Below, piece after piece: positions 6,112 through 26,895 of a stretch of DNA of 32,000 nt. Source of the DNA: Methanothermobacter thermautotrophicus str. Delta H (GTDB taxonomy: Archaea > Methanobacteriota > Methanobacteria > Methanobacteriales > Methanothermobacteraceae); contig NC_000916.1 of NCBI RefSeq assembly GCF_000008645.1, forward strand, positions 1,260,001 through 1,292,000, read 5' to 3'. The notes beneath the pieces were generated by a model. It had not been told where the DNA came from, did not search any database, and saw only the letters and a program-made list of their open reading frames with translations. The position numbers and the translations under genes were made by a program. The first letter of the stretch is position 1, and each line of letters starts with the position of its first letter.

Positions 6112-6484
6112 AGGATATCACTCCATCCTCGCCCTCTTCTCTAACCTTCCTGAATACCATCTCGACCTCATCACCTATTTCTATTGAATCAGGGTCGCAG
6201 TCAACTATCTGGCTTGTTACCCTTGCACCCTCCTCCAGTTCAACTATGGCCACCACGTAGGGGGCTATGTCCTTGAACTCGTCGGTGGGGGTGTTTATGA
6301 CGGAGTAACTGTGTATCCTTCCCTTCCCGCTGAACTTCAATTCCTCGAGTTTGCCCTTGCGTCTGCATTCCGGGCATATTATCCTGCTGGGGAAGAAAAC
6401 ATTCCCGCACTGAAGACATTTTGATCCTGTAAGATTGTAGCGCTGGGGTATATGGCGCCATGTCCTGACGGTTTCTGTCATCAT
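6083..6484 (-). CDS. DUF35 Zn-ribbon/OB-fold protein (family that scaffolds the archaeal thiolase/HMG-CoA synthase complex)
   Basis: A CLQCGNVFFPSRIICPEC rubredoxin-like ribbon is followed by an OB-fold segment (YVVAIVELEEGARVTSQIV..GDEVEMVF). GGAGGT precedes the ATG. Confidence 0.75.
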   Translation of the reverse strand: MMTETVRTWRHIPQRYNLTGSKCLQCGNVFFPSRIICPECRRKGKLEELKFSGKGRIHSYSVINTPTDEFKDIAPYVVAIVELEEGARVTSQIVDCDPDSIEIGDEVEMVFRKVREEGEDGVISYGFKFKPKT

Positions 6485-6753
6485 GTAACCTCCATACAGT
6501 AATCACTTTTCATTATCTATCTTGGTTCATTATAATTAAATCATACGGTCATCTGATATTTAAATCACTGCCTCCCTGAGGGAATAATAAAGATCCCTCT
6601 TGCTCGCAGCTACTTTTTAATGTGTTATGGGCGTCCTTTAGTCCTAAAATGGGTCCATATTCATTTTCTCCAGCACAAAGAATTAATAATACTTTATTAA
6701 TATTTAGGTAATATTTTTATATCTGTAATACTTAATTTTCATTTGGTGATATT

Positions 6754-7656
6754 ATGGATGATTGTGGATACGTCATGGCAGGTGCATCCCTACTGCTGAT
6801 GATACCCGTAATCATAATCACGGCCATGATTCTGAGTCTCGGTGAAGCACACAGTGACATGAACATGGAGAGAAAACTTTCAGCCTGTGTAGAGGGTGCT
6901 GCATGGGACATCAGGGACAACGTCCCCATCATAACAATGGATGTGCTCAATGAAACCGCAGGGGAGGCCATCAATGGGACCCTTCCCTCAGATGATGTCA
7001 GGGATCTGGTCAGGGAGAGAGTGCAGGAGCGTATTGACCGTCTATGCAGAAGCCACAGGAACGTCAATGCAAGCTGCAGGGTGAATTCGGTTGAAGGAAC
7101 AGAGGCCCCCTTTCAGGTTGAGGTCAACTCAACACTTGAAATACGGGCAGGGAACATTGAACACGCTGAGAACCTTTCTGTGAGGGTCACGGTTGATGGA
7201 CTCCCGGATCCGCTGCCCTTCAGGGTCCTCGGGAGGCTTGAACACAGTAACACCACAATAGAATATGGTGATGCCCTCGCAGAGTATCTTAACTCCAGTG
7301 GCGTGGATGGTGGAGCCTACATCAATGCAAAGGGGCCCCTCATTATAAGAAGATGCCCCTACGAACCCTACACCTCCCATGGATCTGAGGGGGTCCATGC
7401 CTGCATCCTCAATGGATACTACCATGAAAGCAGGGATGGTGCCTGTTACCTCTGCAGACTGGAGGGAAAAACATCCTGCCCACACATGGGGCTTGAAACA
7501 TTCATAATCCCGTCGAAGGAATTAGGAGAGGCCCCGGTATCCATTGACCACGTCCTCTTTAATGAAAAATACACTGGCGAAGCACTGAACATCTCAGGAT
7601 TCATCATTTACCTGGACGCAGGTCACATGACAAAGTACGGGGTGAGAAGACAATGA
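6754..7656 (+). CDS. Hypothetical exported protein, N-terminally membrane-anchored, Cys-rich and N-glycosylation-sequon-rich
   Basis: GGTGAT RBS before the ATG. One N-terminal hydrophobic helix (AGASLLLMIPVIIITAMILSL). 8 N-X-S/T sequons (NET, NGT, NAS, NST, NLS, NTT, NSS, NIS) and 9 Cys, including CYLCRLEGKTSCPH. No family recognised. Confidence 0.6.
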   Translation: MDDCGYVMAGASLLLMIPVIIITAMILSLGEAHSDMNMERKLSACVEGAAWDIRDNVPIITMDVLNETAGEAINGTLPSDDVRDLVRERVQERIDRLCRSHRNVNASCRVNSVEGTEAPFQVEVNSTLEIRAGNIEHAENLSVRVTVDGLPDPLPFRVLGRLEHSNTTIEYGDALAEYLNSSGVDGGAYINAKGPLIIRRCPYEPYTSHGSEGVHACILNGYYHESRDGACYLCRLEGKTSCPHMGLETFIIPSKELGEAPVSIDHVLFNEKYTGEALNISGFIIYLDAGHMTKYGVRRQ

Positions 7657-7704
7657 TAACCCCGGCCAGCCCTCTGCCCTCGCCAGAGTACGGATGGGGA
7701 AACC

Positions 7705-8490
7705 ATGATACTGTCAACTGACTTTCTGCTTTCACTGATCATAGTGGCCCTTATCCTGGGAACATCTGCAGAACTTGTGGACATGCAGGAGAGTCGCCTC
7801 AGCGAGGAGTTCCGGGAGGGTCATGTGAATCAGAAAGCCGCTGCTGCAGCTGATATCCTGGTAAGCACTCCAGGGGATCCGCCCAGCTGGGAAAAAATTC
7901 CTGTAAGCGCCTGTAAATCCCCTGGACTTGCAGTGCCCGGTGAGAGGGGAACGATATCCTATGAAAAGTTCAGGAAACTACAGAGCAGGCCGGAACTCCT
8001 TGGCAGGGCCTTCCAGGGTATGAGGGTGCAGCTTGTCCTGAGACCCATCAACTCCAGCATCAGGCCCCTGGTCGCAGGTGAAAACATCAGCGGGGATGAG
8101 ATCTCAGTGATGAGAATACCCGTTAACTGCAACTTCCTCTCAGGCCATGTAATAAAACTCCAGAAGGCTGTCTGTCCCTGCGGACACCCGGAGAACTGGA
8201 CCTGCATGAATTTTAGATTTAACAGTTCACTGGACTACTATCTGATCTCTGACAGCCCGGAGGGCTCATGGATGCTGGATACAGGGAACAGCCACATTGA
8301 TGAGGTGGATCTCATATATGGGAGTGTTAAACTCAATCTGACCGGTGAGGGCGTGGCATGGCTGCACGTACATGGAGGTGGGTGGGTGTCCGTTGTGGCC
8401 CTTCCCCGCGGCAGCAGGGATTATCTCATGTCACCAGACTACTTCCGGGTCCAGCCATGCGTCCTTGAGGTCATAACAGCTCCCTTCTGA
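7705..8490 (+). CDS. Hypothetical exported protein with pilin-like hydrophobic N-terminus, sequon-rich
   Basis: The N-terminus MILSTDFLLSLIIVALILGTSAELV resembles the hydrophobic core of archaeal type IV pilin-like proteins, but no basic leader or G/A cleavage motif is seen. 5 sequons (NSS, NIS, NWT, NSS, NLT) and a CPCGH..C cluster. Co-oriented 48 nt after 6754..7656. Confidence 0.55.
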   Translation: MILSTDFLLSLIIVALILGTSAELVDMQESRLSEEFREGHVNQKAAAAADILVSTPGDPPSWEKIPVSACKSPGLAVPGERGTISYEKFRKLQSRPELLGRAFQGMRVQLVLRPINSSIRPLVAGENISGDEISVMRIPVNCNFLSGHVIKLQKAVCPCGHPENWTCMNFRFNSSLDYYLISDSPEGSWMLDTGNSHIDEVDLIYGSVKLNLTGEGVAWLHVHGGGWVSVVALPRGSRDYLMSPDYFRVQPCVLEVITAPF

Positions 8491-23468: not shown

Positions 23469-23789
23469 TTAAAGTGGGACTGAGGCAGCTGCGAGCACCG
23501 CAGCAACGGTGACTGTGCTCAGATGGCAGGCGTAGAGTGGAGCTGTCTGGAAGCTGTCCCTCAGAACCGGGAGGAACTGTGTGTAGGCTGAAATCCCTGT
23601 GAGTACCTGCAGAGCCACTGCAACGTAATTCAGGGTTACATTGCCAGACATGATATTTGCTGCCGTTGCAATGAGGGCAAGGATAAGGACTCCGAAGTGT
23701 GGCGCCATCCTCATCCCCATTATACGGAAGGTTATGAAACCTGATGAGATTCCTGCAAAGAGGAGTGCGAATATAATGACCTGATACAT
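23469..23789 (-). CDS. Small integral membrane protein (3-4 TM helices), unknown function
   Basis: 106 aa, almost entirely hydrophobic. GAGGTGAT RBS. Starts 10 nt after the TusA/DsrE gene stop on the same strand. Confidence 0.6.
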   Translation of the reverse strand: MYQVIIFALLFAGISSGFITFRIMGMRMAPHFGVLILALIATAANIMSGNVTLNYVAVALQVLTGISAYTQFLPVLRDSFQTAPLYACHLSTVTVAAVLAAASVPL

Positions 23790-23799
23790 TTCATCACCT

Positions 23800-24609
23800 C
23801 TAGAAGTTCACCACTGCGTAGCTCGGGTCACTAAGCAGTGTTATGAACGTGGCTGCACCTGCTATCTTGCAGCCCTCGACCATGTTATCTTCTCTGAGCC
23901 CCCTGAACTGGGCGCTCATTTCACAGACGTAGATCTTAACACCCATCTCAATGACCTCGGCCATGAGTTCATCCAGCCGCGGGAAGGCCGGGTGTTTTAC
24001 GGCGGCTGCACCACCCTTCCTTGCAATGCTCACGCCATCCATGAGGAGGAATATTGTGACATCCTTTCCCATGCTGAGGGCAGCCTTTGAGAATATGAAG
24101 GTGGCGTAGGCCCTCTCTGCATTCCCTGTCCCGTTGCTCTGGACAACGAGTACCTTATCCTTTCCTGTAAATTCCCTTTCCCTGCTAACATCTGTTTTTT
24201 CAAGGATGAGGTGGCTGGCCGATTTTTCAATGACCTCTGCCTTCATTTCAGGAGCTGAGAGTGCAAGGTCATCGATCACGTCACTGCTTTCTGATTTTAT
24301 CTTTATCCTCATCCCTGGCTCCATTGAGGAGAGCCTATCCCCTACGATTATAACCGGGCCGGGACAGGTTTCTCCGGTAACATCTATCTCTTCAATACCC
24401 TGAGGTGAAATGTTAACCACCAGCCCCTTTTCTGTTTCTCTGGGAGAATATTCCATATGGTGCTTCTCTGCAACTCTCCTGACCTCTTCAGAGTCCTCCT
24501 TCAGGATCAGCTGGAGGTTCTGAACACCATTTTTAAGTATATTGTCTGTTATTATAGCTGCAGCGTATCTGTTTACTCCCCTGAGGTTTAATTTCATTTT
24601 TATCCCCAT
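23800..24609 (-). CDS. Three-module sulfur-carrier fusion: degenerate TusA-like + TusA (CPGP) + DsrE/DsrE3-like domain
   Basis: Residues ~6-60: LNLRGVNRYAAAIITDNIL, a TusA-like fold lacking the Cys-Pro. Middle module: IDVTGETCPGPVIIV, the TusA/SirA active-site CPxP. C-terminus: KVLVVQSNGTGNAERAYATFIF..GVKIYVCEMS, DsrE-like with a conserved Cys. Alternative start at ATG 24597 (MKLNL). Confidence 0.7.
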   Translation of the reverse strand: MGIKMKLNLRGVNRYAAAIITDNILKNGVQNLQLILKEDSEEVRRVAEKHHMEYSPRETEKGLVVNISPQGIEEIDVTGETCPGPVIIVGDRLSSMEPGMRIKIKSESSDVIDDLALSAPEMKAEVIEKSASHLILEKTDVSREREFTGKDKVLVVQSNGTGNAERAYATFIFSKAALSMGKDVTIFLLMDGVSIARKGGAAAVKHPAFPRLDELMAEVIEMGVKIYVCEMSAQFRGLREDNMVEGCKIAGAATFITLLSDPSYAVVNF

Positions 24610-25268
24610 TTTTCCCTGAATTTTCTGAGGGCCTCCACAATTCCCTCAAGGTCAGATGCTGGTACTCCGACTGCAAGTTCCTCGGGCCTGATCCCGGCGT
24701 ATTTCCTTGAACCGTTACACCCCATTGTCATGTTTGGGATGCCCCTCTCCCTTACAGCTGCAACGGCGTCTGCACAGAGTGACTGTATCCCTGAGTAGTC
24801 CCCGCTTATTCTGCCACCCCTGTCATGGAGGTATGCCTGGCTGAGTCTAAGCGCCTGGGCCGGTTTAAGTATGAATACAACGGCGTCTGGTTCGAAATCA
24901 GCCTCTTCGAGCGGTGCATAGACTGAGGCATGGTATTCCCCTTTCACCGCGGGAACGGCCTCTACGGTTTCAGCAGCAGCTTCCAGTGTGCTGTAGTTTC
25001 CGAGTTTATGGTACAGGCTTCCATCCGCAACCTGGGGTGGTACCCTGCAGAGTCCAAGGACCGCTGCGCCACCCCTGCAGAGGTGTTCGTCTGCAGTTGC
25101 ATAGCCACAGGCACCCCTTAAGCGTGCATCCTGTATGAACTCGCAGTGCCTCTTCTTTTCAAGCTTTTCACCAGATATTTCCTCATTCTTGACTAACCTG
25201 ACAGCCACGGGCTGCCCTCCATTTTCCAGGAGTTCCTTAAGTTCTTCTGAAATCTTCCTGTAATCCAT
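24600..25268 (-). CDS. DUF169-family protein (unknown function)
   Basis: MDYRKISEELKELLENGGQPVAVRLV..HCEFIQDARLRGA..CRGGAAVLGL is typical of DUF169/COG2043. AGGTGG precedes ATG 25268. The track extension to 25496 overlaps the divergent regulator and is rejected. Confidence 0.7.
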   Translation of the reverse strand: MDYRKISEELKELLENGGQPVAVRLVKNEEISGEKLEKKRHCEFIQDARLRGACGYATADEHLCRGGAAVLGLCRVPPQVADGSLYHKLGNYSTLEAAAETVEAVPAVKGEYHASVYAPLEEADFEPDAVVFILKPAQALRLSQAYLHDRGGRISGDYSGIQSLCADAVAAVRERGIPNMTMGCNGSRKYAGIRPEELAVGVPASDLEGIVEALRKFREKWG

Positions 25269-25384
25269 ACAACCACCTATACATGATAGTATAACTATAC
25301 GATAAAGTATAAAAACCCAATATTTAAATTTTTCTCTAAAGTTATAATTCATGGTTATACCATAGCTATCATGGGGTGAGGTCA
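25269..25384. promoter_or_regulatory. Divergent promoter/operator region between the DUF169 operon and the wHTH-GAF regulator
   Basis: 116 bp and AT-rich, with TATA-like tataaaaa (25310-25317) and tttaaat (25323-25329). Inverted repeat catgatag (25282-25289) / ctatcatg (25366-25373). Small palindrome gtataactatac (25289-25300). Confidence 0.4.
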
Positions 25385-26895
25385 GTGGAGAAACTCTCTG
25401 AAACCGAGAAGATGATAATGTCCTACCTGGAATCAAATCCTCCAGAGGAGTGCATGCTCGACAAGATAACCCGTGGAATAAACAGGAGCAGGGCAACGGT
25501 TCTCAAGTACCTTCACATACTGGAGGCCAGGGGTCTTGTAACATACAGGACGGTTGGCAGAAGCAAACTATGGATGCCTGCGGGAGACCTTGAGGGAACT
25601 GTGGAATACACTGGAGACACATCCAGAGATTCTGAGCTTATAAAAAACGCATCAAAAATTCACAGAAACCTCCTGGAACTCCTGGAACTTGAAAGAAAAA
25701 TAGATGACCCTGATAAACTCGTCTTCACCATAAACACCCTCATGGACATAGTAGTATCCAACGGCCTTTTCAGAAGAATGTTCCCCGGTGCACAGTGCCT
25801 TGGGGACATCATGGACCGGGAGAGCATGGTCCTCATTGAGAACAGAATGAAATCCCGGGGCACGATACAGGTCGATCTGAGGGGAAGGGATGGGATAAGG
25901 AGGAACTACAGCCTTTCAGTCACACCTGTAAACAACTTCTGGGTCATAATAGGAAGGGACCTTGCAAGTTCCTCATTTTCCAAGAATGAACTTGAGGTCC
26001 TCCTCACAATCACAAGGTTGAGATCATCCTCTGGCAGCCTTGAAGAGCTTATGAACTCAATAAGGGATGAATTATCCACCATAATGGACCTTAAACAGCT
26101 TTCGGTGGTCCTAAGCGATGCCTCAGGGTTCAGCAGGGCCTACGAATACCCTGAGTCAGAGGATCTCACTGAATTTGAATACTTCATCTACAGGAGCATT
26201 GAAACCCTCGAGACGGTATCATGGAGGCATGACTCGGGTCTCATGCTTTCAGTACCCCTCATCACAGAGGAAAGGGCGAGGGGAGCCCTTATAATCAGAA
26301 GCCCCGAGGACTCCATAGCCTCACAGAGCCTTGAAATCATAGAGATGGTGGCCGACGAGGTCTCAGAGTATCTAGAAATGGAGAAACTGAGACAGGAGAA
26401 GGATGAGTTCATAAGAACACTTCTGGCCATGAACAGGGTTTCCGAAATCATAAACAGTGATGAGGAAGAGGAAAAAATGCTTGAAAAATCAATCGAGGCC
26501 GTCATAGAAACCCTGGAATTTGAAATGGGATGCATATACCTCATGGAGGAGAAAAAGGAACTCCAGCTCAGGGTTCAGAGGAACTGCCAGAAACCCTCAG
26601 CAGAATGTGCATGGCCGGGGTCTTCACAGACCTCTTTGAGAGGTCCATTGAGAAGGAGGGGGTTATATACATAACCTCTGAGTCGCCTGAATACCGCATG
26701 ATACATGAGTCCATAAGGAGAAACAATATAAGAACAATTCTAATGATTCCGATTAAGTTTTCAGGGGAGATAACAGGAATATTAAACCTGGCAAGTTACA
26801 GTGTTAAACCCTACAACAGGATAAGCCTTGAGAACATTTCATCAATAGGGCTTCAGCTTGGAAGCGCCCTCCAGAGGAAAAGTTATAACTTATAA
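25385..26895 (+). pseudogene. Winged-HTH + GAF-domain transcription regulator interrupted by a frameshift near 26576-26586
   Basis: The N-terminus EKMIMSYLESNPPEECMLDKITRGINRSRATVLKYLHILEARGLVTY is MarR/ArsR-like wHTH. GAF-like sequence ..ETLEFEMGCIYLMEEKKELQLRVQR continues in the other frame as ELPETLSRMCMAGVFTDLFERSIEKEGVIYITSE..MIPIKFSGEITGILNLAS (ORF 26530..26895). The tail of ORF 25376..26674 after QRN looks out of frame. GTG 25385, after GGGGTGA, is the preferred start. Confidence 0.65.

Follow-up and report, generated by a model that had tools for sequence, protein, structure and literature searches.

The subject of the present analysis is a four-gene cassette of Methanothermobacter thermautotrophicus str. 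Delta H, located in a window of 32,000 nucleotides (nt), which is the whole stretch of DNA analysed (NCBI RefSeq assembly GCF_000008645.1, contig NC_000916.1, positions 1,260,001–1,292,000 of the forward strand). It consists of an operon encoding a DUF169 protein, a TusA′-TusA-DsrE fusion protein and a DUF5400 membrane protein, and of a divergently oriented regulator gene. The cassette was found only in methanogens, where its four genes travel as one unit. As to its function we infer, with somewhat less than even confidence, an inducible, membrane-docked relay in which sulfane or thiosulfonate sulfur would be passed from Cys to Cys under the control of a repressor. A first-pass annotation, made from the sequence alone, had noted three co-oriented genes that overlap or lie no more than 10 nt apart, and had proposed them as a candidate undescribed system. 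Their coordinates and spacing were reproduced from the open reading frames (ORFs), and no description of the cassette architecture was found in the searchable literature. The genes are as follows (positions in the window):

23469–23789, minus strand: DUF5400 (PF17379) membrane protein, 106 amino acids (aa) (ORF list, Pfam, hydropathy)
23800–24609, minus strand: TusA′-TusA-DsrE fusion, 269 aa, or 265 aa if the start is at 24597 (ORF list, Pfam, model)
24600–25268, minus strand: DUF169 (PF02596) protein, 222 aa, first gene of the operon (ORF list, Pfam)
25376–26895, plus strand: divergent regulator with winged helix-turn-helix (wHTH), PAS, GAF and GAF domains (ORF list, Pfam, comparison with relatives)

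The length of the DUF169 protein was counted from an ATG within a longer open frame. Its gene overlaps that of the fusion by 10 nt, or is separated from it by a 2-nt gap if the fusion begins at its second ATG (24597), which is the position of the start in all relatives. Ten nt lie between the stop codon of the fusion and the start of DUF5400, the latter being preceded by the Shine–Dalgarno-like sequence GAGGTGAT.

All eight other genomes of the genus contain a full-length homologue of the fusion, as do 28 of the 286 from the neighbouring family, and none was found in a third family. The gene order DUF169–fusion–DUF5400 was the same in every one of the 30 loci fetched from the class Methanobacteria, and the regulator gene lay divergently upstream, within a short flank, in 28 of them. 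A scan of named genomes gave 28 loci, 24 of which hold all four genes, the exceptions being two Methanococcales loci and two short contigs. Four-gene cassettes were found in Methanobacterium, Methanothermobacter, Methanocella, Methanogenium cariaci and Methanofollis. More than 50 loci from four orders retain the gene order and spacing amid flanking genes that all change; within 8-kb flanks no further conserved partner was found beyond close relatives, only the four cassette genes being conserved. The neighbourhood comparison suggested by the first-pass annotation thus confirmed the linkage of the three families, together with the regulator, across four methanogen orders.

The AlphaFold2 model of the fusion protein (mean predicted local distance difference test score, pLDDT, 87.5) comprises three modules with short linkers between them:

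24403–24600, minus strand: module 1 (residues 4–69), β-α-β-α-β-β SirA/TusA fold, free of Cys and weakly conserved (AlphaFold2 model)
24190–24402, minus strand: module 2 (residues 70–140), TusA with the invariant DVTG.TCPGP motif (Cys82) (Pfam, model)
23803–24162, minus strand: module 3 (residues 150–269), DsrE-like, with the invariant motifs G.GNAE.AY.TF, VKHP.F and VCE.SA.FRG (Cys229) (Pfam, model)

The earlier assignment of a CPGP-bearing TusA module and a DsrE module agrees with the Pfam profiles, with a sequence match in PDB and with the folds of the model. The TusA profile (PF01206) matched residues 74–129 (E 1.1e-8, 35.3 bits with a cut-off of 28.6) and the DsrE profile (PF02635) residues 152–269 (E 4.6e-26, 91.7 bits with a cut-off of 22.7), so that, together with DUF169, all three families proposed for profile searches were matched; the Methanococcales homologues of the fusion reached 55–61 bits with the TusA profile. 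The two motifs pointed out in the fusion, CPGP (in ETCPGP) and YVCEMS, were both seen, and Cys82 (DVTG.TCPGP) and Cys229 (VCE.SA.FRG) are the only invariant Cys residues in 29 homologues from four orders. At the CPxP site of TusA the sequence T-C82-P-G-P is invariant in these 29 proteins, and in the model a helix begins at residue 84.

The modules were compared with solved structures by an all-against-representatives search using the AlphaFold2 model. Module 2 (residues 70–139) matched Escherichia coli TusA (3lvj_C) with Z 11.3 and a root mean square deviation (rmsd) of 1.8, its best match being YeeD in the YeeE-YeeD complex (8j4c, Z 11.5). Module 3, the most conserved part of the fusion, matched YchN (1jx7, Z 16.6), SSO1125 (3mc3, Z 16.2), DsrEFH (2hy5_A, Z 15.4) and 2d1p_B (Z 13.2). 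Its nearest solved relative by sequence was also 3mc3 (phmmer, E 2.3e-9), where YVCV pairs with YVC229E. SSO1125 is an archaeal DsrE3A, an established thiosulfonate carrier (Tanabe et al., 2024, PMC11094781). With an identity of about 22% to 3mc3, module 3 is best classed as DsrE3A-like rather than as a member of DsrE3A. The fusion stayed far below the NCBIfam equivalog cut-offs of TusA, TusD/C/B, DsrE2 and YedF (in bits, 20.6 vs. 89.25 for TusD/DsrE, 13.8 vs. 94.15 for TusC/DsrF, 13.7 vs. 49.2 for TusB/DsrH and 32.9 vs. 210 for DsrE2), and its TusC and TusB matches did not reach significance. The N-terminal module, described at first as a degenerate TusA-like domain without Cys, shows the TusA/SirA fold in the predicted structure, 66 of 74 residues being aligned with the SirA-like protein 3hz7 (VIA-align, Z 10.1, rmsd 1.6). 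BLASTP detected no similarity between modules 1 and 2, the hhalign probability for this pair (2.3%) was not significant, and the profile of module 1 gave chance matches only in PDB. The TusA-like call is therefore right at the level of the fold, which sequence methods could not reveal.

Two side observations concern homologues of the fusion. The fusion gene of Methanogenium cariaci JCM 10550 (7380–7990 of the locus) matches in three pieces lying in different frames, which suggests frameshifts, either real or due to errors of the draft assembly. Seven of 92 genomes from another genus of the class gave weak matches (E ~1e-13, residues 73–208 of the fusion) within frames of 320–370 aa, and these may represent a different TusA-DsrE architecture in genomes that lack the cassette.

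The assignment of 24600–25268 to DUF169 was upheld by a full-length profile match (Pfam, E 3.4e-62, 210 bits, positions 1–208 of 209). Four Cys residues are conserved (Cys42, Cys64, Cys165 and Cys184; in one paralogue the last of them is replaced by Asp), and all four are placed at helix starts in the model, the pLDDT of which is 95.6. The fold of DUF169 is confidently predicted and is without a convincing solved relative: phmmer found nothing real in PDB, the best Foldseek match had E 0.15, and the all-against-representatives search gave Z 5.3 at best, the thiolase-like halves (Z ≤4.2) being background. An internal repeat of the two halves was not detected by hhalign. Look-alikes in the ESM Atlas (GGGtGRT, 0.91; AA_synth, 0.89) are leads only.

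DUF169 genes are present in all 41 Methanobacteria genomes searched, at one to six copies per genome (four in the genome of the window), and in 29 of 30 Methanococci genomes. In a quick maximum-likelihood tree with midpoint rooting, the cassette-linked copies formed one clade (Shimodaira–Hasegawa-like approximate likelihood ratio test, SH-aLRT, 96). Its sister group was the single DUF169 found in Methanococci, and this pair was split from all paralogues with an SH-aLRT of 99. The rows of Methanocella and Methanomicrobiales nest among those of Methanobacterium, suggesting that the cassette moved between orders, in a direction that we do not claim.

The Methanococcales carry the same DUF169 subfamily paired with thioredoxin, and in several genomes the set continues into the fusion and DUF5400; unlike the cassette of the window, this version adds the thioredoxin and a small four-Cys protein and is devoid of the PAS-GAF regulator. 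The DUF169 gene is followed by that of thioredoxin in 21 of 30 Methanococci genomes, and this thioredoxin matches that of Methanocaldococcus jannaschii (PDB 1fo5, E 2e-52). The next gene encodes a protein of 60–78 aa without a Pfam family and with four conserved Cys (VCK ... C..C ... P.C). A homologue of the fusion was located within 1.5 kb of the DUF169-thioredoxin set in seven loci. In Methanothermococcus okinawensis the order is DUF169–thioredoxin–fusion–DUF5400, and in Methanocaldococcus indicus it is fusion–145-aa unknown protein–DUF5400, with a polyferredoxin gene adjoining. A conserved protein of about 146 aa, likewise without a Pfam family, was observed in Methanococci; its gene and that of the four-Cys protein both lie between the thioredoxin gene and that of the fusion or DUF5400.

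The third product of the operon had been described as a 106-aa polytopic membrane protein, which is in line with its four hydrophobic segments (hydropathy); its family, unnamed until then, is DUF5400 (PF17379, E 3.6e-44, 149.6 bits, profile positions 1–100 of 100). This family is tiny, as a profile search among 1.84 billion representative proteins found only seven members, mostly fragments. There is one DUF5400 gene per genome, present in those genomes that have the fusion and always adjoining the fusion gene: all 37 genomes with a full-length fusion also carry it, and it was seen beside the fusion only. Two conserved loops, SGFITFR..GM..APHF and NFQT.P.YA.H, lie on the same side of the membrane according to the topology and probably face the cytoplasm, a side assigned because of their positive charges. 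Conserved Cys was not found in the DUF5400 alignment, therefore the protein is not itself a covalent sulfur carrier. It had no sequence match in PDB, and its Atlas scores were below 0.9.

The control region between DUF169 and the regulator gene is 107 bp long and contains the following elements:

25278–25293: tandem operator copy 1, TATACATGATAGTATA (one mismatch to TATACnnTATAGTATA)
25296–25311: tandem operator copy 2, TATACGATAAAGTATA (one mismatch to TATACnnTATAGTATA)
25321–25330: AT-rich TATA-like element ATATTTAAAT, possibly common to both transcription units (read from the sequence)

Intact relatives of the regulator are 500–560 aa long and consist of a winged HTH at the N-terminus followed by one PAS and two GAF domains; the only Cys residues that are invariant among them are a pair located in the last GAF domain (GC and MC). 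The palindrome TATACnnTATAGTATA is common to the cassette intergenic regions of all loci. It is found as two tandem copies, joined by GTATAACTATAC in the window, that separate a TATA box from the start of DUF169. A further copy, placed between a TATA box and the beginning of the regulator gene, was seen in Methanobacterium, Methanocella, Methanogenium and Methanofollis. In four complete genomes of other genera, perfect copies of TATACnnTATAGTATA were confined to the cassette locus, and copies with one mismatch occurred elsewhere at the control rate; the only matches in the genome of the window are the two one-mismatch copies. The prominence of perfect or near-perfect copies of TATACnnTATAGTATA at the cassette alone in five genomes fits a dedicated repressor, and the first-pass suggestion of a dedicated GAF regulator gains support from this and from the HTH and GAF domains recognized by Pfam. 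Archaeal repressors usually bind downstream of the TATA box. Since the palindrome is located there, between the TATA box and the start codon, is conserved along with the regulator gene and is specific for the locus, the regulator is read as a putative autoregulated repressor with this operon as its whole regulon. The intergenic region between DUF169 and the regulator gene of Methanobacterium sp. J_0 (6280–7080 of the fetched locus) is 1.2 kb long instead of the usual ~200 bp, and the extra length looks like an insertion between two operator-bearing promoters.

From the observed family memberships, invariant Cys residues, conserved four-gene unit and operator, we infer a mechanism that covers the repression and its signal, the substrate, the order Cys229 to Cys82 to DUF169, the resolution by thioredoxin and the role of DUF5400. 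The wHTH-PAS-GAF-GAF protein would sit on TATACnnTATAGTATA downstream of the TATA box and so repress both promoters, until it is released by a signal perceived through the C-terminal GAF domain, where its only invariant Cys pair is located. DUF5400, probably an oligomer, would dock the carrier at the inner face of the membrane or admit a small sulfur anion. Cys229 of the DsrE module would take over sulfane sulfur as a persulfide, or a thiosulfonate, from polysulfide, elemental sulfur or thiosulfate-type compounds and hand it to Cys82 of the TusA module, the Cys-less module 1 acting as a scaffold or docking domain. The four-Cys DUF169 protein could be the acceptor that resolves the bound sulfur reductively, for which the adjoining thioredoxin and the four-Cys miniprotein would supply electrons in Methanococcales. 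The product would be sulfide, perhaps along with sulfite, and would serve either assimilation or detoxification. Both DsrE3A and TusA are established carriers of thiosulfonate or persulfide (PMC11094781), and Methanothermobacter grows on H2S or sulfite (PMC3087415). A bolder interpretation, which we regard as unlikely though worth stating, is that DUF169 is an unrecognized Cys-based (or iron–sulfur) sulfur-processing enzyme and would form, with the carrier and DUF5400, the missing route of cytochrome-free methanogens for membrane uptake and reductive splitting of thiosulfate, polysulfide or elemental sulfur. In its boldest version, the chemistry of the cassette would supply or buffer sulfite for coenzyme M synthesis in class I methanogens living on sulfide.

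Several points weigh against the proposed relay. Its substrate, direction and partners are deduced from family membership. Most of the Methanobacteria searched lack the cassette, the full-length fusion being present in 37 of 301 genomes of the class, and this patchy spread marks it as accessory or dispensable rather than core. Relatives of DUF169 with known function were not detected in the phmmer, Foldseek and structure searches of PDB, and a transport role of DUF5400 is a guess, because this protein has neither conserved Cys nor similarity to a known transporter. The support for transcription consists of assembled RNA contigs, which cannot prove transcription or gauge its level. Finally, the regulator gene and perhaps DUF169 are frameshifted in the lineage of the window, thus the cassette may not work here.

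Relative to two close strains, one base is missing from the window after position 26583, which splits the regulator into two ORFs (25376–26674 and 26530–26895) inside the last GAF domain, between its two invariant Cys residues; the regulator is intact in all relatives, among them a strain with 98% identity. The same 1-nt deletion is present in contigs of two pure-culture RNA runs and of one metatranscriptome, while one DNA contig from a metagenome, with no other difference over 3.5 kb, has an extra C that keeps the regulator frame whole. Since the RNA contigs share the deletion, a lineage does carry the frameshift, which is more than a mistake of old sequencing. In DUF169, codons 15–20 (25208–25225) give LENGGQPVAV in the window vs. 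LEMEGSPVAV in all relatives, owing to an extra A in an A-run and a missing base 14 nt further (a +1/−1 pair). RNA contigs of two studies are without the extra A and keep the missing base; the DUF169 protein encoded by them would stop at codon 24 unless a downstream GTG serves as the start. The +1/−1 pair is either an error of the reference or a second lesion in the cassette of this lineage. The culture RNA contigs of the two runs end at 25238 and 25184 and resume at 25354 and 25350, respectively, so both units are represented in the RNA libraries; the gap near both starts fits divergent transcription, although it is a weak hint only.

Among the rival explanations, a biosynthetic sulfur relay is of low probability. 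Here the persulfide would be delivered to a thio-cofactor or to tRNA thiolation, Cys/homocysteine or iron–sulfur synthesis, and DUF169 would be the sulfur-inserting or acceptor protein. TusA/DsrE-type proteins are known as families that serve tRNA thiolation and cofactor synthesis (PMC11094781), all Methanobacteria genomes searched and nearly all those of Methanococci carry DUF169, and SepRS is occasionally accompanied by DUF169 (PMC8762117). However, a core biosynthetic step would have been retained rather than distributed as patchily as the cassette is, a dedicated sensor-repressor and a membrane partner suit a conditional response better than housekeeping, and no biosynthetic enzyme is conserved in the 8-kb flanks.

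We consider it similarly improbable that the cassette is a redox or stress module working without net sulfur transfer, such as a membrane-anchored thiol-disulfide or peroxiredoxin-like system, which could be directed at oxygen or at reactive species of sulfur or nitrogen. The PAS and GAF sensor domains of the regulator, the thioredoxin adjoining in Methanococcales and the name "predicted peroxiredoxin/TusA-related sulfurtransferase" given to homologues by JGI would be compatible with such a role, as would a Desulfovibrio cluster with a DUF169 gene beside a TauE/SafE permease, the disruption of which raises fitness on nitrate (PMC4001038). The "peroxiredoxin" COG label is, however, historical and refers to the DsrE fold. 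Furthermore, both invariant Cys residues of the fusion are placed exactly at the sulfur-carrying sites of TusA and DsrE3A, and the cassette has neither a conserved peroxidase nor a conserved reductase.

That the cassette is the archaeal counterpart of YedE/YedF and handles selenium or a different chalcogen is very improbable. YedF, like the fusion, combines a SirA/TusA-like with a DsrE-like domain within one polypeptide; it is linked to SelD and was reported to be absent from archaea (PMC5322559). The fusion gave a weak match to the YedF model (TIGR03527, E 2.9e-6), and the selenium depletion of Methanococcus maripaludis, which lowered the DUF169 transcript 6.8-fold and raised TusA/TusD more than 20-fold (PMC11097638), is an intriguing lead. 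Nevertheless, the score was 27.2 bits with a cut-off of 110, the CGxC motif of the DsrE domain of YedF is absent (Cys229 being the sole invariant Cys there), an extra N-terminal module is present, and DUF5400 is unrelated to YedE according to Pfam. SelD scored above its profile cut-off in only one of five cassette hosts, Methanocaldococcus indicus, and was not found in the genome of the window, a Methanobacterium, a Methanocella and Methanogenium. Selenium handling as the general function was rejected because SelD is missing from four of the five hosts and the fusion agrees with YedF neither in score nor in motif. That the genes are mere neighbours rather than one functional unit is hardly credible, since the order and spacing persist across four orders amid changing flanks, DUF5400 occurs nowhere else, the operator is common and locus-specific, and the genes overlap or are spaced by 10 nt or less.

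The preferred interpretation as a Cys-to-Cys relay also has to be set against the known sulfur carriers. A DsrE3A-TusA relay of thiosulfonate or persulfide has been described for Sulfolobales and sHdr sulfur oxidizers (Liu et al., 2014, as cited in Tanabe et al., 2024, PMC11094781). The cassette resembles it in having a DsrE3A-like Cys aligned with that of SSO1125 and a CPxP TusA, between which a Cys-to-Cys hand-over would be expected. In contrast to that relay, both carriers are fused here in one chain behind a Cys-less TusA-fold module, the hosts are strictly anaerobic methanogens without sHdr or Dsr sulfur oxidation, and the partners are DUF169, DUF5400 and a putative PAS-GAF repressor of their own instead of Hdr-like enzymes or LbpA. 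The system for thiosulfate uptake formed by YeeE-YeeD (TsuA-TsuB; 8j4c) shares the combination of a TusA-fold protein with a membrane protein encoded by the neighbouring gene. Unlike YeeE, DUF5400 is an unrelated protein of only 106 aa with four hydrophobic segments, which matched PF17379 only and not a YeeE-type (Sulf_transp) partner with conserved Cys, and the cassette adds the DsrE and DUF169 parts. The TusA-TusBCD and DsrEFH relays use the same two folds with the active-site Cys at a helix N-terminus; unlike these, the cassette has a single DsrE-type module instead of three paralogous subunits.

TusA and DsrE relays as such are known. The new features are the fusion of three modules, the subfamily to which this DUF169 belongs, DUF5400 as a partner, and a PAS-GAF repressor together with its operator; in the searchable literature neither a mention of DUF5400 nor, among 19 papers naming DUF169, a functional study of the latter was found. 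Sulfur trafficking in methanogens is only partly understood, and many of these organisms are not known to have a cysteine desulfurase. We know of no genes for the use of thiosulfate or elemental sulfur in methanogens, and the cassette is a testable candidate for the handling of sulfur other than plain sulfide by these archaea. It places two uncharacterized families, the widespread DUF169 and the methanogen-only DUF5400, in a defined context. Cys82 and Cys229 are clear catalytic candidates, and the matched pair of regulator and operator could report the inducing signal. As the fold of DUF169 is predicted with confidence and is without a solved relative, a characterization of this family would also annotate thousands of genes of anaerobes.

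Further genes of these families were observed about 50 kb upstream of the cassette of the window (1218000–1234000 of the genome), where a DsrE-like (121 aa) and a DsrF-like (118 aa) protein are encoded by genes of their own beside an ORF resembling pyridine-nucleotide-disulfide oxidoreductases. About 8 kb beyond them lies a DUF169 paralogue, directly followed by a 106-aa ORF similar to 4Fe-4S ferredoxins.

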